Below are positions 2,104-17,805 of a stretch of 20,000 bases of DNA, one piece after another. The notes beneath the pieces are model-generated. The model saw only the letters and a list, made by a program, of their open reading frames with translations, was not told the origin of the DNA and did not search any database. The stretch is taken from the IMG/VR virus record IMGVR_UViG_3300033388_003316. One strand, given 5' to 3'. This DNA comes from an uncultured virus (IMG/VR IMGVR_UViG_3300033388_003316). Lineage: Duplodnaviria > Heunggongvirae > Uroviricota > Caudoviricetes. The first letter of the stretch is position 1. Each line of letters starts with the position of its first letter. Made by a program: the position numbers and the translations under genes.

Positions 2104-2564
2104 TGAAAATAAATAATACCATAATAGATAATATTAAGGAATACTGCAAACTTAATGGGATTTTAAATATTGATGAATTTGTAAATAAAGCATTAAATCG
2201 TGGATTCACAATCGCTAAGTATGGTGAAACGCCAACAACAACACAACATATCCCAAAAGTAATAGAAAAAGAAGTCCCTATTGAAGTGATTAAAGAAATT
2301 GAGGTAATTAAAGAAGTTGAAAAAATAGTAAATGTTACTGATGATGTAGAAATTAATAGGTTATTAAATAAAATTGAAGATATGAAAATGTCTCATATAG
2401 AAACCATTAATTTACTTAAAAAAGATATGGGGGAGCAAAACCAAGTAATAATAAAATTAAATAAGGAGAAAAATCTTATTAAATTGGATTGTGATGAACA
2501 ATTAAAAAATAAAGACGAAGAAATAAGAAAACTTAAATCTAACAAAGATTTTTACGGTGAATAA
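2103..2564 (+). CDS. Hypothetical coiled-coil protein with EVIKE-type low-complexity repeats
   Basis: 153-aa ORF coupled to sbcD by a TAATG overlap. Contains KVIEKEVPIEVIKEIEVIKEVEKIV and a charged helical C-terminus. Confidence 0.7.
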   Translation: MKINNTIIDNIKEYCKLNGILNIDEFVNKALNRGFTIAKYGETPTTTQHIPKVIEKEVPIEVIKEIEVIKEVEKIVNVTDDVEINRLLNKIEDMKMSHIETINLLKKDMGEQNQVIIKLNKEKNLIKLDCDEQLKNKDEEIRKLKSNKDFYGE

Positions 2565-2565
2565 T

Positions 2566-4932
2566 ATGAAAAAAATCGAAGAAAATAAATTAGTTAAAAT
2601 ACCACCATATGCTAAAGTTAAGGTATATTGGGATGATAATCCAGAAAATTATTCTAGAGAAGGTAGAAATAGAGTTCAATCATATTTTTCTAGAAAATAC
2701 GGGGTGACAAAAACAAACGTTAATGTCGTATTCAGACCAACTAAGATAGATAAAAACGGTAATGAAATCGAAATCAGTGGTGCTGGTATTGATAACATAA
2801 TGGACAGTAATTATCAAAGGGGTTTAATGAAAGAGTGGATTGAAAGAAATGAAAAAAAAGTTGATTTCCAAAGAATAGTTAAATTAGATGAAAAGGTTAA
2901 TGGTTCATTAGAAATAGATGTAAACGAAGTTAAACATAGGAGATGGGAAATAAAATGGTTAAGTATAAATAATTTTCTTTGTTATGGTGAAAACAATTAT
3001 GTTAATTTTGGTAAACTAAAAGGGTTATCAATCATTAATTCAACCCCTAAAAACCAAGGTGGTAAAACAACATTTAGTGTTGATGCTATAAAATTTTTAT
3101 TATTTGGTAAAACAACAAAAACAGACACTAATGCTGAAGTTTTTAACACATTTACTAATGAAAATAAAATAACTTTAAGAGGTATGATTACTTACGATGG
3201 TAAAGATATCATTATTGAAAGGGTGTTAAGTAGGACCGAAAAAAGAGCGGGTGGTTACACTATTAAAAATAAATTATCTTACTATAAGTTAATGCCAGAC
3301 GGTGAAGAAATAATTTTGGAAGAAGAAGACGCAACTTCAACCACAGCTGAAATTAAAAGAACTATTGGTGATGAATCTGATTTCGATATTACAATCCTTA
3401 CAACGGCAAAAAACTTAGAAGATTTAATAGACACCACCCCTACCGAGTCTGGAAAACTACTCACTAAATTTATTGGTATTGAAGTAATTGAAATGAAAGA
3501 AAAAATAGTTCGTAAAATGCACAATGAATATAGTAAAACTATGAAATCTAATCATTTTAATGTTGAGGAACTTAAAAATGAAATTATTGAACATAAAGAA
3601 GCCGTTGATTATAGTAAAAAATTATTAATTAAACAAAAACTTGAATTAGATGAAATAAAAAGTCGTATCAACATATTGAACAACGATAAAGATAATTTAT
3701 TAATTAGTAAAAAACCAGTTGATGTTACGATATCCCAATTAAACCCAGAAACAATAGAATCTGAAATAAAAAGTATAACTAATAAAGGTAAAGAGTTTGC
3801 GGAATCTATTAAGAAATATTTAGTTGAAATAAATGAAATTGGAAATGTAACATATGATGAAACAAGTTATTTTAATTTAAATAAGGAATATAATGCACTA
3901 GATGCTAAGTTAAATGCAAATATGGTAACTAAAGAAAACCATATTTGTACGGTAGACCAGTTAAAAAATGGTGAAATATGTCCAACATGTAAAAGACCAT
4001 TGGAAGATGTTGACCATTCAAACGAAATTAAAATTGAAGAAGCCAAAATCGAAAAATTAATTACTGAACACAAGGTTGGTACTAAAAAACTAGAAAAAAT
4101 AAGAGATGAAATTAACTTAATGGGTGAGGTTAAAAAATCTGTTGACCTAAAAAATAAGATTGAATTACAAAAAGACCGTGCTGAGGTTGAAATAGAGGCA
4201 CTAAGAAACAAAATAAAGGTTAAAAGAATTGATTTAAAAAATTATAATGATAATATTGAAACTATTAACCTTAATAGACTTATAGACTCAAAAATTGAGG
4301 TTGTTAAAACAAATATTGTGGTACAAGAAACCAAAAAAGACTCAATAATAGGTGAAATAAAAACTACAGAGAGTGATATAACCACCAATAATACTAGTAT
4401 CAGGACAAAAGAAACACTTATTGATACTATAGGTAAAGAAAAAGAGGTAGATAGGCTATTTAAGATATATGTTGAAATGATTGGTAAAAAAGGTATTAGT
4501 AAATTAATACTAAGGTCAGTACTACCAATCATCAACTCTGAGTTATATAGGTTAATGGATGAGGTTTGTGATTTTGAAGTAGAATTAACAATTAATGATA
4601 AAAATGATGTTGTATTTATACTAAGTAAAAATGGTATTGAGAAAAAATTAAAATCTGGAAGTGGTTTTGAAAAAACAACAGCAAGTATTGCATTAAGGTG
4701 TGTTTTAGGTAAAATATCACACCTACCCATGCCAAACTTCGTTACTTTTGACGAACCATTTGGTATGGTCGCTGATGTAAATCTAGATAAGATTAAACCA
4801 ATGTTTGATAAGATTAAAGATATGTATGATATTGTTTTTTTAATTTCCCACATAGATACTGTTAAAGATTGGGGTGACAATGTAATTACCGTTAAAAAAG
4901 TTAAAGATATTAGTGAAATATCAGTAAAATAA
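2566..4932 (+). CDS. sbcC: SbcC/Rad50-like SMC ATPase (T4 gp46-like) with ~125-aa N-terminal extension
   Basis: INNFLCYG, Walker A variant STPKNQGGKTT, coiled coil with zinc hook CPTC (3979-3990), signature variant SGSGFEK, Walker B FVTFDE, H-loop LISH. ATG 2566 preferred over the GTG at 2557. Confidence 0.9.
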   Translation: MKKIEENKLVKIPPYAKVKVYWDDNPENYSREGRNRVQSYFSRKYGVTKTNVNVVFRPTKIDKNGNEIEISGAGIDNIMDSNYQRGLMKEWIERNEKKVDFQRIVKLDEKVNGSLEIDVNEVKHRRWEIKWLSINNFLCYGENNYVNFGKLKGLSIINSTPKNQGGKTTFSVDAIKFLLFGKTTKTDTNAEVFNTFTNENKITLRGMITYDGKDIIIERVLSRTEKRAGGYTIKNKLSYYKLMPDGEEIILEEEDATSTTAEIKRTIGDESDFDITILTTAKNLEDLIDTTPTESGKLLTKFIGIEVIEMKEKIVRKMHNEYSKTMKSNHFNVEELKNEIIEHKEAVDYSKKLLIKQKLELDEIKSRINILNNDKDNLLISKKPVDVTISQLNPETIESEIKSITNKGKEFAESIKKYLVEINEIGNVTYDETSYFNLNKEYNALDAKLNANMVTKENHICTVDQLKNGEICPTCKRPLEDVDHSNEIKIEEAKIEKLITEHKVGTKKLEKIRDEINLMGEVKKSVDLKNKIELQKDRAEVEIEALRNKIKVKRIDLKNYNDNIETINLNRLIDSKIEVVKTNIVVQETKKDSIIGEIKTTESDITTNNTSIRTKETLIDTIGKEKEVDRLFKIYVEMIGKKGISKLILRSVLPIINSELYRLMDEVCDFEVELTINDKNDVVFILSKNGIEKKLKSGSGFEKTTASIALRCVLGKISHLPMPNFVTFDEPFGMVADVNLDKIKPMFDKIKDMYDIVFLISHIDTVKDWGDNVITVKKVKDISEISVK

Positions 4933-5460: not shown

Positions 5461-5564
5461 ATTATTACATAAAAAACATTTAAAAAAGGTTTACTTTTTA
5501 ACATTATGTTGTATATTAATGTGTTCAGACGAACCAAAATAATAGTAAAGGAAAATGAAAATTG

Positions 5565-9820: not shown

Positions 9821-10075
9821 ATGAAAAAGTTCATTAGGAAAAGACTAAATGAAGAGTTAACTAAATCTGATGTAAAAGATGAGGTATCAAATATGTTAAA
9901 ATCAGATACATTAAAAAATAAAGTTATTGAAATTCTAAAGGATAAAATTAAGAACGACCCAGAATTGGAAAATTTTATGGTTGATATTAGTAAAAATGTT
10001 CTTACACAATTATATAAAACATTATGGACAAAAAGAGGTTTCTGGCAGTCTAGTTTAAAAAACAAAAGAGCGTAA
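9821..10075 (+). CDS. Hypothetical protein (possible head-associated protein)
   Basis: 84 aa with N-terminal MKKFIRKRLNEE leader; ATATTTAT upstream at 9800-9807; TAATG overlap with the next gene. Confidence 0.7.
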   Translation: MKKFIRKRLNEELTKSDVKDEVSNMLKSDTLKNKVIEILKDKIKNDPELENFMVDISKNVLTQLYKTLWTKRGFWQSSLKNKRA

Positions 10076-11907
10076 TGGGAAAAATTAAATTAACTGAATC
10101 ACAAATCACGATGTTACAATCGTTTGAATCAAAACTTTCAAGTAAGAAAGTGATTAAAGTAACAACTGAACAATACAATAGATTATTTGAATCAGACAGT
10201 TCACATGAATTCAACATGCCACCTAAATCAATTATGGCTTCAAGTAAAGTAACTAAAAACTTTAAAAATAGTGGTAAAACAATACCAGATTCTAATATAA
10301 AATTTGAAAACGAAACACACGAACCAAGGGAGGTTGAAGTATTTGGTAGGGAAGTAATTAGATTCCTTAAAAGATTACTAAGTGACCCAACAGACAATAA
10401 AATTAATAGTTATTGGAGAAAATTAGGTGTATCTAAAGAAGAATTAACAAACAAAATGTTTGAACTAGGTATGTTAGGTCATGGGGTTATCAATGATAAA
10501 AAGATTATTAAAATCATGAAAGATAACTTTACGGGGAACATAAAGGAATTATATGATGAATATAGACCTAAAAGTGAAGGTATCGTTCAAATGGGAGATG
10601 ATATTGAAATATCTGAAATGGATAGTAGTGATATCAAACAATCCATGATTAAACAATTAAATAGAAAAAACATACCTAAACCATCTCCAGAATCAATAAA
10701 AGCCAAAATAGCTCAAAAGAGAGCTGAGGAAATGAAAAGAAGGGAAGTTGAGAAGAATAGACAATTAGGTGAGTTATCAAAAATATCTGATGTAGGTGGA
10801 TTAGAAGAAAGTGATTGGTTTGATAAGTTATCACACCACCCAGCAAATCAAGAAACCCCAAACAACGCTAATAGACCTGAGACAATAATTTTTGATTTAT
10901 TATTATCTTTAGGTGAATTCAGTATCTTTGAAAAAGATGGTAAATACTTTACATTTAATGTTGAGGGTACTAGTCACGATGAATTTGCTGACTATGCAGA
11001 CAGGGAAGAAACATTTAACGGATATGATGAAGACGGAACACCAAACGTAGATTATAGCGATTTTGAACTTAATGATGAAGTAATTAGTAACTATGTAAAT
11101 GATAGGTACCAAGACCTTTCGTTCGGTAAAGGTTTTGATGATTACGAGAACGGTATTGATATGGTTGAAATAGACCAAGAAATGATTGATGAAATGTTAT
11201 CTGTAGCAAAATACATCAAGAACCCAAAACTAAAACAAGAATTTTCATCAATATTAACTAACCTTACTGTAAGTGAGGTAACATCAGCTGCTGGTTCATC
11301 TGGCGCATTTGTAGGTAAAATGAGTACTAACCCCACAGTAGTTGGAGTTAACCCGTCAGATGAGATGAAAAACATTGTTGGTGAGGCTGATGAAAAGCAC
11401 GAAGAATTAAATAAAAAAATTAGTGAATTAAAGTATCAAAATTTTCAACACCCATCATTAGGTGTATTTTTTTTAGGTAAAGTAAATAACAAACACGAAG
11501 ATAAAAATAAAATCGATATCACTATTGGGTTAATGAGAGACGGTGAAAATTTGGACAGCGAATTAATTTATACGTATAATAAAAAAACTGATAAAGATGA
11601 ATTAATATTTAATCATGATTCAGAAATATTTCGTAGTGCTTATGTTATGTTTGATGAGTTATATAAATTAGTATTTGATTCTATTAAAGATGCATTAAGG
11701 CCAACTGCTGATGTTCAAGAACAAGGTATTAATCATGTCTCAACATATGATACCCCTAGCTTCCCATCATCAGATTTTATGGGTAATAAAAACAAGAAAG
11801 GTAAAGCACCTGTTAATAAAGGGGTCACACATAAAAAAACTATGTACCCAAAAGGTAAAATGGTTAAAGTAAGTGAAACTAAAATTATTTTAGTAAAAAA
11901 AAAATAA
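10075..11907 (+). CDS. Large acidic/charged hypothetical protein (probable virion head-internal protein); 0-frame product ends in KKK at an A10 run
   Basis: 610-aa ORF. N-terminal KIKLTESQ and KVIKVTTEQYNRLFE motifs and many [ILV]-x-E sites. The structural role is inferred. Confidence 0.75.
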   Translation: MGKIKLTESQITMLQSFESKLSSKKVIKVTTEQYNRLFESDSSHEFNMPPKSIMASSKVTKNFKNSGKTIPDSNIKFENETHEPREVEVFGREVIRFLKRLLSDPTDNKINSYWRKLGVSKEELTNKMFELGMLGHGVINDKKIIKIMKDNFTGNIKELYDEYRPKSEGIVQMGDDIEISEMDSSDIKQSMIKQLNRKNIPKPSPESIKAKIAQKRAEEMKRREVEKNRQLGELSKISDVGGLEESDWFDKLSHHPANQETPNNANRPETIIFDLLLSLGEFSIFEKDGKYFTFNVEGTSHDEFADYADREETFNGYDEDGTPNVDYSDFELNDEVISNYVNDRYQDLSFGKGFDDYENGIDMVEIDQEMIDEMLSVAKYIKNPKLKQEFSSILTNLTVSEVTSAAGSSGAFVGKMSTNPTVVGVNPSDEMKNIVGEADEKHEELNKKISELKYQNFQHPSLGVFFLGKVNNKHEDKNKIDITIGLMRDGENLDSELIYTYNKKTDKDELIFNHDSEIFRSAYVMFDELYKLVFDSIKDALRPTADVQEQGINHVSTYDTPSFPSSDFMGNKNKKGKAPVNKGVTHKKTMYPKGKMVKVSETKIILVKKK

Positions 11908-12161
11908 CTGAAAATAGTAACCAAAGTGATACTCAGTACCCAGAAGGTAGTTTTGTTAAGTTTGATGATTGCACAAAATTAAATAATAATAAAGAAGCCC
12001 AAAACGGTGGTTGTAGTACTGGAGCTAAAGACGGTGTGGTAAAAACAAAACAAACAATAGGTTCAGTTATTTCTGATGATGCTTTATATTATGAGATAGC
12101 CAAAAAAACTGGTTTAACAATGACTGAAGTCAAAAAGATAATAGAAAGAAAAAAAGGGTGA
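11904..12161 (+). CDS. -1 frame continuation of the 10075 gene (85 aa, no own start codon)
   Basis: Reads ITENSNQSDTQYPEGSFVKFDDCTKLNNNKEAQNGGCSTGAKDGVVKTKQTIGSVISDDALYYEIAKKTGLTMTEVKKIIERKKG*. Frame opens at 11883 (after TAA 11880-11882); the only ATG is near its end (12120). Fills an otherwise empty gap. Confidence 0.7.
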   Translation: MTENSNQSDTQYPEGSFVKFDDCTKLNNNKEAQNGGCSTGAKDGVVKTKQTIGSVISDDALYYEIAKKTGLTMTEVKKIIERKKG

Positions 12162-12192
12162 TTTTACTCTTAAATGATATATTTATAATATA

Positions 12193-12345
12193 ATGTCTAA
12201 ACATAATAAGATTGAAGAATTAAAAGCTCAATTAAAAGCTGAATTAGAAAAACCAACACCAAATAAAGATTTAATTGGTAAACTAAGAAGGCGAATTGTA
12301 ATGTTTGGGTTAGGATTAACTGGGAGAGATATAAAACTATTTTAA
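12193..12345 (+). CDS. Small hypothetical protein (50 aa)
   Basis: MSKHNKIEELKAQLKAELEKPTPNKDLIGKLRRRIVMFGLGLTGRDIKLF*. Preceded by ATATTTATA (12179-12187); stop lies 1 nt before the next ATG. Below the ORF-track cutoff. Confidence 0.65.
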   Translation: MSKHNKIEELKAQLKAELEKPTPNKDLIGKLRRRIVMFGLGLTGRDIKLF

Positions 12346-12346
12346 T

Positions 12347-13585
12347 ATGTATAAAAATTTAATAAACAAACATTTGTCTAATAGACATATAAATGAAGAA
12401 GCCAAACACAATGGTCTTGCTACAACTGAAAAAGTTCAAAAACAAGATGATAAAGTAAATAAGGCTGCCTACAAAGAAGTTGAAAAGAAAATGAAGGATT
12501 ATGATAAAGCATCAACCCAAGAAGATGATAACTCAATAGATGAACCTAAAACTAACATTGAAGGTAAAACTAAAGAATATCATGATGAGATGGAAATCAG
12601 AAATGGTCAAGAAATGTTAAAATATGATAATGAACCTTCCGAAAACTTCACAAAAAGAGCTGAAATGGCTTTAGCTGGTGACCCTAAAATGGGTAACGAA
12701 ACTAAAGAAGGTAAGTGGGACCCAGAAACGGGTGAAGGTAACGGAAATACTGAGGAAGTTTGGGGCTCATCTGGTGGGAAAAACACTGGTGAAGAAATCA
12801 TAAAACTTGCAAAGTCTTCAAATAAGAAAAGAAATGATGCTGAATACAACTTAATTCAGTTTGGTGATGATATTGAACAATCTGGTGAATCAAAAACTAG
12901 AGGTAAAGCTAGAGGTATTGCAGTTGAAAGTAAAATAAATAATAAAAAGTCTTTAAAAGAAAATAAAATGAAAAGATTGAAATTTAAAAAACCATTTGAT
13001 GGTGTTGGGAACGCATTAAGGTTAATTCCAGAAACATATAAAGTTGATAATAAAACATTTCAAATGACTGATGGTAATGAAAATTACGAAATCAGATGGG
13101 AAGGGTCATTAAACGAAGGTAAAGCTGTTGTACTAAAAGCGTCAGATAAAAATATGGTAAATGAGGATGTCCAAAAAATGAAACACCTTATGGGTTATAA
13201 ATCTCAAGACACATTAGGTACTCTTAAAGGTTCTGACAGAATAACTGAGAATAAGGATAATTCATTTAGAAATATGCTTAATAAAACTAGAGGACTTATG
13301 ACAGAATCTATGGAAGAAACAGAATTATCACCAAAACAAAGTAAAGTAATGGATAAAGATAATGATGGTGATATAGACGCTAAAGACCTTAAAAAACTTA
13401 GAAACGAATCAACACCAAAAGACGATAAAAAAGACGACCATGTTACGGAATCTGACAGCGATACCCCAGATATGAGTGAAATTAAAAAATGTGTTTCTGA
13501 AGGCATGACATATGAGCAAATTTGTGAAAAATATTCAAACTGTGATAAGTCAAAACTTAAAGAGATGTATGAATCTTGTAAATAA
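12347..13585 (+). CDS. Highly charged hypothetical protein with EF-hand-like loop (probable prohead core/internal head protein)
   Basis: 412 aa, K/E/D-rich, repeated INEE/LKE/LNE/VNE/ITE/VTE/VSE sites, and DKDNDGDIDAKD at 13352-13387. Confidence 0.75.
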   Translation: MYKNLINKHLSNRHINEEAKHNGLATTEKVQKQDDKVNKAAYKEVEKKMKDYDKASTQEDDNSIDEPKTNIEGKTKEYHDEMEIRNGQEMLKYDNEPSENFTKRAEMALAGDPKMGNETKEGKWDPETGEGNGNTEEVWGSSGGKNTGEEIIKLAKSSNKKRNDAEYNLIQFGDDIEQSGESKTRGKARGIAVESKINNKKSLKENKMKRLKFKKPFDGVGNALRLIPETYKVDNKTFQMTDGNENYEIRWEGSLNEGKAVVLKASDKNMVNEDVQKMKHLMGYKSQDTLGTLKGSDRITENKDNSFRNMLNKTRGLMTESMEETELSPKQSKVMDKDNDGDIDAKDLKKLRNESTPKDDKKDDHVTESDSDTPDMSEIKKCVSEGMTYEQICEKYSNCDKSKLKEMYESCK

Positions 13586-14696: not shown

Positions 14697-15188
14697 ATGA
14701 GTAAATTTGAAAATAAAAAAAAATTTTTAAACTATATTACTAATCCATTATCTAGAACTAGTATTGAACTATTATATAGTTCAAACCACATTATTTTTGA
14801 AAAATGTGACTTATATCGTGATTTCGTCTTGTCATTATTTGACATAATATTCACAACATACATGGGTGATAAAGTAACTAAAGAAAATGATAGAATAACC
14901 CACTTCAAATGGTGTTGGGGTCGAACTATAAAAAACTTTGAGATAGAAAATATATATTTTGGCCACAATCAAGAATTATATGATTATTTCTTAAATTTTA
15001 TGGTAGAAATTTTTTATTCTGTAGATAACGAATCACCATATAACAATATTAATAATAATATGGTAAAATTATGGACTCACACCTTTAATTATGAGACAAT
15101 AAAGACTCGTTCTGATGTGGACATATTCATTGAGGTGTATAAAATGTTTGATAAATCATTGAAAAAGGGTAAAAAACTTAATTTTTAG
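14697..15188 (+). CDS. Hypothetical protein
   Basis: 163-aa aromatic-rich ORF; no recognisable motif. Confidence 0.7.
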   Translation: MSKFENKKKFLNYITNPLSRTSIELLYSSNHIIFEKCDLYRDFVLSLFDIIFTTYMGDKVTKENDRITHFKWCWGRTIKNFEIENIYFGHNQELYDYFLNFMVEIFYSVDNESPYNNINNNMVKLWTHTFNYETIKTRSDVDIFIEVYKMFDKSLKKGKKLNF

Positions 15189-16038: not shown

Positions 16039-16686
16039 ATGAATATTGAAAAACGAATAAAAGCACTACAACCATACGTAATCCAGATTAGGTTTTCAAA
16101 TGGTGTTGGTATTGTTGATGTAGTATTTAAAGACGGCTGGAAAGTACCTGTATCAAAAGTTATTGATGCAGTTAAGGGTGATGATAAAAATGTTAATTAT
16201 TATATGTTCTATACTGAAAAAGATGGTTTAGGTATAGATGATGTGTTAGATTATATAGAACAAGTCATTAACATAAATATTGAGAGAGAGAAAAAGTATG
16301 AATTATTAAAAGTAAAAACTGAGGAATTAAAAGATATATTCAGAAAAAACCCATTATCAAAACTTCAAGATATGAAGTTCATATTAGGTGATGATGAATT
16401 AATATCAAACAACATACCAGAAGACTTTGATAGTATACCTATTATTAATACTAACACCACAATCAATAGTGAAGATAAATTAATTGATAAAGTTGAGGAA
16501 AAAAAACTAAGTACTAATGGTGAAACCCATAAAACCAAGACCAAAAAAGTTGGGGACCAAGAAATTGAGTTACCACCTAAAAACAAAAAAATTCACTTAG
16601 AAAATTACTCAGAACCAAATACGGTATGTAAGTGCAATAAAGACGATGTTTGTCCAACATGTATAAATAAAAAAATGGATTATTAA
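16039..16686 (+). CDS. Hypothetical protein with C-terminal Cys cluster
   Basis: 215 aa, ending CKCNKDDVCPTC (possible Zn site) after a low-complexity linker. Confidence 0.7.
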   Translation: MNIEKRIKALQPYVIQIRFSNGVGIVDVVFKDGWKVPVSKVIDAVKGDDKNVNYYMFYTEKDGLGIDDVLDYIEQVININIEREKKYELLKVKTEELKDIFRKNPLSKLQDMKFILGDDELISNNIPEDFDSIPIINTNTTINSEDKLIDKVEEKKLSTNGETHKTKTKKVGDQEIELPPKNKKIHLENYSEPNTVCKCNKDDVCPTCINKKMDY

Positions 16687-16716
16687 AAAAAAAAACACCT
16701 ATTGGTGTTTTTTTTT
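16687..16716. terminator. Bidirectional intrinsic terminator between convergent genes
   Basis: A-run, CACC-tatt-GGTG, T9; lies between the stops at 16686 (+) and 16715 (-). Confidence 0.8.
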
Positions 16717-17089: not shown

Positions 17090-17482
17090 ATGAAAAAAAA
17101 TACAGAAGAAGAAAACTTTGCTGGTGTTTTAGTCAAAGCAAAGGACACTGGCAGGGTGTTTTTGATGTTGAGAAGTCCAAGCCCTAACCATGGTTTAACT
17201 TGGGGATTGATAAGTGGTGGACTTGATAGTGGTGAGGACATACTTGAAGGACTTAAAAGAGAAATATCAGAAGAAACTCAAATAAACCCAAATATAATCA
17301 AATATAACTTTATTCATAGTGAAGAAGAAAGGGGTGGGTTATTTTATTATTACGAAGGCTTTACAGATTCAGAATTTATACCTACATTAGATTATGAGAA
17401 TTTAGAGTATGGTTGGTTTGAAAAAGATAATTTACCAAGTCCATTATACCCAGAATTACACAATAAAATTAATTTAATATGA
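17090..17482 (+). CDS. NUDIX hydrolase
   Basis: Nudix box GGLDSGEDILEGLKREISEETQ (G-x5-E-x7-RE-xx-EE); C-terminal EYGWF...LPSPLYP. Confidence 0.9.
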   Translation: MKKNTEEENFAGVLVKAKDTGRVFLMLRSPSPNHGLTWGLISGGLDSGEDILEGLKREISEETQINPNIIKYNFIHSEEERGGLFYYYEGFTDSEFIPTLDYENLEYGWFEKDNLPSPLYPELHNKINLI

Positions 17483-17805
17483 ATGAAAAAAAAAATTATT
17501 CTATAGAAAATGGTTATATGAGTATTCATGAGCTATTGGCCACCAACGGGGTTAATCAGAGAAATTTAATTAATAATCTAGAAAGGGAAGAGCAAATAGA
17601 TGGTAGGGAAAGTTATGATATGATTGAAGCTGACATTAAAGCTAATATAAATAAAACCAATTTAAGTAAAGAGCGTTATATAAATGATATTAAGGGTGGT
17701 TTAGGTGACTTAATTAAAAAAGAACCCAACACAATCAAGATTATCAAAAAAACTACATTAAATAAGTTTACTGATATAATAAAAAAAATATTTACAAAGT
17801 TTTGA
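17479..17805 (+). CDS. Hypothetical protein
   Basis: 108-aa ORF overlapping the NUDIX stop (ATGA). Confidence 0.65.
   Translation: MNEKKNYSIENGYMSIHELLATNGVNQRNLINNLEREEQIDGRESYDMIEADIKANINKTNLSKERYINDIKGGLGDLIKKEPNTIKIIKKTTLNKFTDIIKKIFTKF

Follow-up and report, generated by a model that had tools for sequence, protein, structure and literature searches.

The stretch analysed here, called the window below, comprises 20,000 nucleotides (nt) of an uncultured Caudoviricetes virus (IMG/VR IMGVR_UViG_3300033388_003316), and the element in question is a run of ten adenines (A10; 11895..11904, + strand) at which one gene of the window is divided between two reading frames. The window has a G+C content of approximately 29%, and every large open reading frame (ORF) lies on the + strand. 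The first of the two frames (the zero frame; 10075..11907, + strand) encodes 610 amino acids (aa), which cover the gene's N-terminus and middle. The frame opens with an MGKIKLTESQ-type family leader and ends GTA AAA AAA AAA TAA, so that zero-frame decoding takes the tract as (GT)A AAA AAA AAA. Both non-productive frames are stopped directly after this putative slip site (11905..11911, + strand), by TAA at 11905-11907 in the zero frame and by TGA at 11909-11911 in the +1 frame, where AAC TGA (11906-11911) leaves one open codon only. The -1 frame is open from 11883 (P0001, a 92-residue translation), and its continuation past the tract (11904..12161, + strand), which forms the C-terminal domain of the same gene, runs for 85 codons before TGA at 12159-12161. 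The first ATG, GTG or TTG in this frame is the GTG at 12036, downstream of the conserved part, which therefore lacks a start codon. A motif is repeated on either side of the shift, as KKTMYPKGKMVKV at 11833-11871 and as SDTQYPEGSFVKF at 11925-11963, and homologues carry both copies. An earlier description of the locus (the sequence-only reading) had proposed the 610-aa ORF, the A-run at 11895-11904, the start-less -1 frame of 85 codons to 12161 and the repeated motif, all of which were confirmed.

The A10 tract by itself is unremarkable in this window, where three runs of at least ten A's were observed and 2.6-3.1 were expected under Markov models of order 1-5. Its placement before a long open -1 frame is far beyond chance. 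The -1 frames of 20 window ORFs contain 1014 stops in 5451 codons (0.186 per codon) and the longest open stretch is 40 codons, so that 88 open -1 codons are surprising, with a probability of approximately 1e-8 at the window's stop density.

Comparison with homologues establishes that the start-less -1 ORF 11904..12161 belongs to the same gene as ORF 10075..11907, because the homologues are colinear single ORFs that match the window exactly if its tract is given eleven A's (A11). Among loci on viral contigs matched by the 92-residue -1 translation, 12 of 13 carry the extension in frame at the C-terminus of one uninterrupted ORF, as do 30 of 31 viral loci found by profile search, a set that includes the same 13 contigs. 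These single ORFs span 345-1090 codons and carry an MKKIKITE-type leader at the start. In the metagenomes, 18 of 19 loci likewise have the extension in frame (one is too short to judge), as do all eight database proteins found with the 610-aa part. The closest relative (L001/L014, on the complete 353-kb record G004) is residue-for-residue colinear with the window if the tract is read as A11, and a DNA alignment of the window with L014 requires exactly one extra base at the tract, at which position L014 has A7-C-AA. The claim of the sequence-only reading that the extension belongs to the same polypeptide is thus borne out by colinear single-ORF homologues.

The extension also bears the mark of selection. 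It is 76% identical in amino acid sequence to L014, with a ratio of nonsynonymous to synonymous substitution rates (dN/dS) of 0.21, and 75% identical to a second relative, L015 (dN/dS 0.19). The 610-aa part is 70% identical to L014 over 599 aligned codons (dN/dS 0.18) and has a dN/dS of 0.26 against L015. Substitution ratios of approximately 0.2 indicate that the extension is under purifying selection. Searches of viral and metagenome contigs found no contig closer than 76% aa identity. The GenBank phage collection returned no match by DNA or protein, and no cultured relative was found. A pattern-based search for loci related to the 610-aa part was negative, as were exact-pattern scans of the tract flanks, with 7-14 bases between them, in viral and metagenome contigs.

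The frame break itself was not shared by the relatives. The sequence-only reading had proposed asking whether the A-run and the break are conserved, and the counts given above (30 of 31 viral and 18 of 19 metagenome loci in frame) answer in the negative. It had also held that homologues which are always single in-frame ORFs, or an extension that is not conserved, would refute recoding; the homologues come close to the former, and the extension is conserved. Conservation cannot show the site to be programmed, because the homologues are nearly always single ORFs and the closest of them has A7-C-AA. Since relatives lack it at this position, the break is judged to be young and confined to this lineage.

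The conserved core of the extension (P0001 residues 24-48; 11952..12026, + strand) contains a Cys pair and an NNNKEAQNGGC motif. C30, N34, N35, C44 and G47 are invariant in 36 aligned sequences, which includes both members of the Cys pair that had been pointed out beforehand, and no other part of the family is as strongly conserved as this core. At E<=0.001 the Cys-pair domain was found in 277 cluster representatives. The protein matches no Pfam or PHROG family, and the sole match in a profile search of the PDB (8vd6_A; E 0.0021, 29 residues) was weak and judged uninformative. AlphaFold2 predicts two C-terminal helices (P0001 residues 65-76 and 80-90; 12075..12152, + strand) with a predicted local distance difference test (pLDDT) score of approximately 79 for these blocks, in a model of the extension built from 36 sequences whose mean pLDDT is 61.4 and whose predicted template modelling score is 0.34. 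The helical C-terminus expected by the sequence-only reading is thus predicted, and its likeness to HU or to helix-turn-helix (HTH) proteins fell short, as structure matches in the Atlas to HTH/HU-type clusters reached template modelling (TM) scores of 0.33-0.44, all below the threshold. A DNA-binding, HTH/HU-like role of the predicted helices is only a lead.

The C-terminus of the family is modular and variable: four loci (L004, L005, L007 and L013) do not have the helical tail, and others carry different modules. Some members (L030, L031 at 2232-4814, and L044, also L163 and L167) contain an ArdC-N/HExxH (IrrE/M78-like) module, which sits after the Cys-pair domain in some members and before it in others. 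The modules have therefore been shuffled, within a protein that resembles an anti-restriction type. Several short database proteins (P0124, P0076, P0134, P0080 and P0125) start just upstream of the Cys-pair domain, some with junk-like or foreign N-termini (P0124 starts dehydrogenase-like), and these may be contig-edge fragments, chimeras or further frame-broken copies.

The window derives from a giant, T4-like marine phage that is uncultured and AT-rich. Synteny links the window to G004 at approximately 114-134 kb, the shared gene order being exonuclease, SbcD, SbcC, 268-aa membrane protein, the gene studied here (the focal gene), the next large gene, peptidoglycan-binding amidase, NUDIX and phrog_19422. 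The head module of G004 is of T4 type (Portal_T4, Gp23 and Peptidase_S77; PF03420, 5.7e-21, the T4 gp21-type prohead protease).

A second gene of this clade is out of frame at a comparable tract in every locus. It lies in the head region, approximately 2 kb upstream of terminase in G004 (338866-340826; e.g., L056:1167-3127), and belongs to no named family. In G004, which has only about seven tracts of at least ten A's or T's in the whole record, a 271-aa ORF (...KKKV*) closes with a tract at 339666-339675, past which comes a -1 frame of 383 codons. Eighty loci (L077-L156) were fetched with the 271-aa part, giving 64 non-redundant junctions. An A9-A11 tract lies near the end of the ORF in 80 of 80 loci, and the non-redundant junctions comprise 53 with A10, nine with A9 and two with A11, no tract being shorter than nine A's. 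The zero-frame stop follows 1-8 codons past the tract and the -1 frame is open for 257-750 codons, with the exception of one locus at a contig end. The first ATG in the -1 frame is up to 153 codons away, and the conserved peptide begins immediately after the tract. Run length (A9, A10 or A11) is exactly as the preceding codon predicts. On this evidence the head-region gene carries a fixed recoding site, and a frame that is broken in 80 of 80 loci shows that bridging of such tracts by the clade takes place during expression. The sequence-only reading had suggested looking for other genes ending in KKK* with an open -1 frame; in relatives, genes of similar build are this one, in 80 of 80 loci, and those at the sporadic sites described below.

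Many fixed-site junctions are followed by stable RNA structure. Ten of 14 tested had 3' hairpins with z-scores of about -2 or lower (down to -5.9; dinucleotide shuffles, 75 nt), often as two hairpins, one beginning immediately past the tract and the other, rich in G+C, approximately 35-45 nt further on. The loci with hairpins include L077, L081, L089, L095, L110, L132, L149 and L154, among others, and the stem sequences differ between loci. RNAalifold found no consensus structure in 20 aligned fixed-site junctions, in whose sequence alignment the hairpins are out of register. A 5' hairpin was considered as a general feature of the fixed site and rejected, as a stem of at least 5 bp occurs at 12 of 64 junctions and at 17% of control positions.

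Sporadic breaks of the same kind were found elsewhere in the clade. Within the focal family, L005:2791-2800 (= L024:3291-3300) has an A10 followed by TAA approximately 50 residues upstream of the window's position, with L007 as an in-frame sister. Orthologues of the next large gene (12347..13585) have A10 breaks in three loci (L019:5305-5314, L026:5352-5361 and L031:6345-6354), where the ORFs end ...KKKVK*, ...KKKVN* or ...KKKIN* and the -1 continuation of 105-199 codons encodes a conserved acidic peptide; at a comparable place in the same gene, L020:5192-5202 has an A11 that is in frame. In two contigs (107 kb and 53 kb) the sole tract of at least ten A's is such a break, the 53-kb contig being that of L005. 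Altogether, 13 tracts of at least ten A's lie inside long ORFs, of which seven are in frame and six are breaks. All six breaks are repaired by one added A and none requires a deletion. Many further apparent breaks at A6-A9 runs in a scan of G004 were discarded as ordinary gene junctions.

Several potential signals surround the tract of the window. An A_AAA_AAA heptamer (of the X_XXY_YYZ type) lies in phase with the zero frame inside GTA AAA AAA AAA. The weak downstream stem that the sequence-only reading had pointed to is predicted, and the 3' structure was not significant (z = -0.72 over 100 nt and +0.34 over 75 nt). Inspection by eye of the 34 nt upstream of the site found no GGAGG-like Shine-Dalgarno stretch. 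On the 5' side, an inverted repeat (ACTAAAA/TTTTAGT; 11878..11894, + strand) with a 7-bp stem and a 3-nt loop ends at the base before the tract and could form a weak hairpin in the nascent RNA, with a predicted minimum free energy of -2.2 kcal/mol. All five sporadic break sites carry an abutting 5' stem of 5-7 bp, and stems of at least 7 bp occur at 6-8% of control A-run edges and at none of 13 in-frame tracts of at least nine A's, an enrichment that comes from a small sample and a post hoc test. The 5' hairpin is a better candidate stimulator than the downstream stem. The presence in the window of a gene for a sigma-70-type factor suggests that a host-type RNA polymerase carries out transcription. 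The string formed by the A-run and TAACTGA was considered as a mobile or signal cassette, as it occurs in the window, L024 and L040, in an A7 version in L044, and with a GTC spacer in G004; this was rejected, since the string is explained by the K-[IL]-T-E peptide motif of the family, which also forms the family N-terminus (AAA ATA ACT GAA).

The explanation favoured here, with confidence slightly above even, is that the focal ORFs are one gene with a true A10, from which a short product and a minor 695-aa product are made by slippage at a young site. Standard decoding would give the 610-aa protein, without the Cys-pair domain and the two-helix tail, and a slip on the A10 would yield the full-length protein as a minority product. 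The long form can arise only through a slip on the tract. Such slippage likely takes place at this site, its occurrence, mechanism and level being deduced from sequence comparison. RNA polymerase would add one extra A while transcribing the tract (+1A slippage), or alternatively the ribosome would slip back one base on A_AAA_AAA just before TAA; ribosome sliding on poly(A) may be a further route. Bacterial RNA polymerase slips efficiently in vivo on runs of nine A or T, and the A10 exceeds the minimum of approximately 9 nt taken from that account (PMC5009743). In favour of transcriptional slippage, no tract in the head-region gene has fewer than nine A's, whereas a ribosomal heptamer alone would allow seven. 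The site would then represent the adventitious use of a decoding habit on which the clade already relies, rather than an ancient conserved signal. The description of the site as programmed, made by the sequence-only reading, therefore, in the sense of a conserved site, fits the conserved site of the same kind elsewhere in the clade (80 of 80 loci) and does not fit this site, where the tract is not conserved.

Several observations weigh against this explanation. The break is absent from relatives at this site, the closest of which have shorter, interrupted A runs and a continuous frame, and among approximately 50 family loci only the window and L005 are broken. The window does not have the strong 3' hairpins of the fixed site, and the two kinds of site may therefore work differently. 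Its 5' hairpin is weak (-2.2 kcal/mol), and the enrichment of such stems is based on five sites, two of them orthologous. An in-frame A10 at 17486-17495 (codons 3-6 of window ORF 17479..17805) shows that such tracts also arise without a recoding role. Finally, the support for A10 consists of low-depth contigs (3.4 and 4.6) and not of raw reads, a single contig extends at least 31 bases to either side of the tract, one of the supporting runs is possibly the source of the window, and the edge of one contig could reflect an assembly-graph branch.

A wider proposal concerns the role of the protein in the virion. T4-type head proteases prefer (L/I)-x-E, and packaged internal head proteins have a short N-terminal leader ending in that motif. 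The focal protein begins MGKIKLTE, a leader that ends L-T-E, and the leader pattern (K-[ILV]-x-[ILV]-[TS]-E) occurs within the first 14 residues of three G004 ORFs, compared with 0.2 expected; these start at 123828, 319969 and 337857, one of them directly upstream of the fixed-site gene. The shared leader may be a targeting or processing signal. Together with the T4-type head protease of G004, the N-terminal leader motif makes a head-associated role of the focal protein only a lead, and a modular protein that is packaged and possibly injected is suggested. In the window (ITE) the tract is also followed by an [LIV]-x-E motif, and the same is true of most fixed-site junctions and of the neighbour-gene sites. 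It is conceivable, though on balance unlikely, that A9-A11 tracts are a general, evolvable recoding device of the clade, with one fixed site and shifting young sites, the window's among them, placed at module boundaries ahead of an [LIV]-x-E that suits the T4-type head protease, and a 5' hairpin at the sporadic sites. Slippage would then determine how much of a packaged, possibly injected protein is made in the short and how much in the extended form, and the extra module would be cut free in the head.

A quite improbable alternative to slippage during expression is a contingency locus at the DNA level, in which replication slippage would toggle the tract between A10 (domain off) and A11 (domain on), and the long protein would come from an A11 subpopulation of a mixed phage population whose majority state is the one in the assembly. 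Homopolymers of at least 6 bp inside ORFs are described as reversible frameshift switches in T2, T4 and other phages, where they serve bet-hedging against host defence (10.1101/2025.10.21.683753), and the A10 exceeds that length. Both states are present in relatives, as L040 has an in-frame A11 in the focal family, and in the neighbour gene the A11 of L020 stands beside the A10 of L019, L026 and L031. The ArdC-N/HExxH anti-restriction-like module of some family members would suit host-defence pressure, and an intergenic tract differs between near-identical contigs (A10 and A9). However, toggling does not describe the head-region gene, whose frame is broken in all 80 of its loci, and the contigs over the window's tract contain no run-length variant, a weak objection since contigs drop minor variants. 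Contingency switching and expression-level slippage are compatible with each other.

Plain recent truncation is similarly doubtful. Here a 1-bp deletion in an A11 would have removed the C-terminal domain, any read-through would be noise, and the extension would be decaying or dispensable. The limitation of the break to this lineage, the status of homopolymers as deletion hot spots and the modular, variable C-terminus of the family are all as truncation would have them. Nevertheless, the extension retains 85 codons without a stop and a dN/dS of approximately 0.2 (a very recent event would look alike), A10 is present on at least two haplotypes, six of six clade breaks are in the direction repaired by an added A, and the domain that would be lost includes the most conserved part of the family.

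The length of the tract was assessed from Logan contigs of four runs placed on 11400-12400. A search for sequencing runs that contain this sequence listed no RNA run, and each run listed shared less than 0.3 of its words. A 230-nt contig of the X3 run (depth 4.6) covers 11754-11983 and bridges the tract with no gaps and one single-nucleotide polymorphism (SNP; A>G at 11850), on account of which it represents another haplotype. A 306-nt contig of the X2 run (depth 3.4) covers 11883-12188, including the tract, with no differences. This contig begins 12 nt 5' of the tract; its edge at 11883 may be an assembly-graph branch at the homopolymer, reflecting length or strain variation, or a result of low depth. 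The X2 and X3 runs are from different studies, and one of them may be the window's own source sample. The question of A10 or A11 raised by the sequence-only reading is thus answered at the contig level in favour of A10. In-frame A11 tracts do get reported in these collections (L020, L040 and L044), and 16 redundant loci of the head-region gene repeat the junctions of their counterparts exactly, with identical run lengths in near-identical contigs from different samples. Run lengths are therefore reproducibly reported and a systematic undercall is unlikely. The tract very probably has ten A's, and assembly error is unlikely. In the same collections, L032:5497-5506 has an A10 and L034-L036:5497-5505 an A9 in near-identical contigs, in a tract whose first bases lie in the TAA stop of a 590-codon frame (end at 5498) and whose remainder is intergenic; run length thus varies where there is no reading-frame constraint. 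That the window simply has an A11 that was misread, within an ordinary 695-codon ORF, would agree with the in-frame state of all close homologues, the error-prone nature of long homopolymers and the use of low-depth contigs rather than raw reads, but it is very improbable given a gap-free A10 in contigs of two other runs from different studies, one of them separately assembled as its SNP shows, and given in-frame A11 calls and codon-matched A9, A10 and A11 calls in the head-region gene, frames that a systematic undercall would break.

Expression-level slippage at the window's tract has parallels in several known systems. The closest is tssM1 of Citrobacter rodentium, in which an A11 tract before a stop gives rise to mRNAs with 10-15 A's and proteins of two lengths (PMC4256274). 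As in tssM1, and in tssM of Yersinia pseudotuberculosis, the window has a long A tract before a stop, a conserved C-terminal domain in another frame, no ribosomal stimulator nearby and homologues that are single ORFs, and a short and a full-length variant would be made. However, mRNA heterogeneity and the need for both forms were shown by experiment in tssM1, whereas the window contains a phage gene with an A10 that is read from sequence alone. In AT-rich insect endosymbionts, frameshifted genes have poly(A) tracts and 12-50% of transcripts are corrected by slippage (PMC5009743). The window resembles these in its AT-rich genome, an indel in a long A run and adventitious use rather than an ancient signal, but the endosymbiont case is regarded as one of tolerated decay under weak selection, whereas the phage clade also has a strictly conserved site, which suggests that its tracts are used and not merely tolerated. 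Slippage on a 9-nt run also occurs in dnaX of Thermus thermophilus (PMC5009743), which shares with the window a run of at least nine A or T, stops close by in both non-productive frames and products with a common N-terminus. The roles are reversed, as the long form of dnaX is the zero-frame product and its short form comes from slipped mRNAs. A nascent-RNA stem-loop stimulates slippage in a Roseiflexus insertion sequence (PMC5009743), and the 5' hairpin of the window resembles it.

Within the clade, the window's site and the fixed site are built alike: the tract spans three AAA codons, the zero frame stops a few codons later at most, the -1 frame continues for a long way, and an [LIV]-x-E follows soon after the tract. 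Unlike the fixed site, which occurs in every one of 80 loci and is often followed by strong 3' hairpins, the window's site is unique to its lineage and has no significant 3' structure. Phage contingency loci share with it a frame-changing homopolymer in an ORF of a T4-type phage, while their own feature is a DNA-level switch that produces a mixed population (10.1101/2025.10.21.683753). Tail-chaperone -1 frameshifting of the lambda G/GT type similarly uses an overlapping -1 frame to add a C-terminal extension to a minor share of the product (PMC5009743), but is described as relying on a heptamer that is conserved across orthologues in a fixed gene pair, whereas the window has a 10-nt tract at an unconserved site in a different gene.

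The consequences for annotation are direct. Gene callers give a 610-aa protein followed by an orphan gap, and joining the two frames restores the most conserved domain of a family that spans at least 277 sequence clusters and has no Pfam or PHROG name. Split genes at A9-A11 tracts in AT-rich phage metagenomes are accordingly not to be dismissed as errors. The locus also offers a possible origin of recoding sites, in which a lysine-rich linker would drift to a long A tract, lose one base and stay usable through the clade's expression machinery. The window and the fixed site form a natural series of young and old slip sites, which could separate the requirements of slippage (tract length, 5' hairpin and 3' hairpins) from historical accident. 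The type of recoding is itself of an already known kind, and the clade-wide pattern of tracts is a more interesting result than the single site.

The surroundings of the focal gene are largely conserved. Upstream, an 84-aa conserved gene (9821..10075, + strand) has a stop that overlaps the start codon of the 610-aa ORF, and the same upstream gene end precedes the family gene in most loci. The next large gene (412 aa; 12347..13585, + strand) is intact in the window, where its copy contains no tract, in contrast to the orthologues in L019, L026 and L031, which carry their own A10 frame break. Elsewhere in the window, an in-frame A9 lies at 14715-14723 within ORF 14697..15188, and an A11...T9 inverted repeat at 16685-16716, just past the stop of ORF 16039..16686, resembles a two-way terminator.

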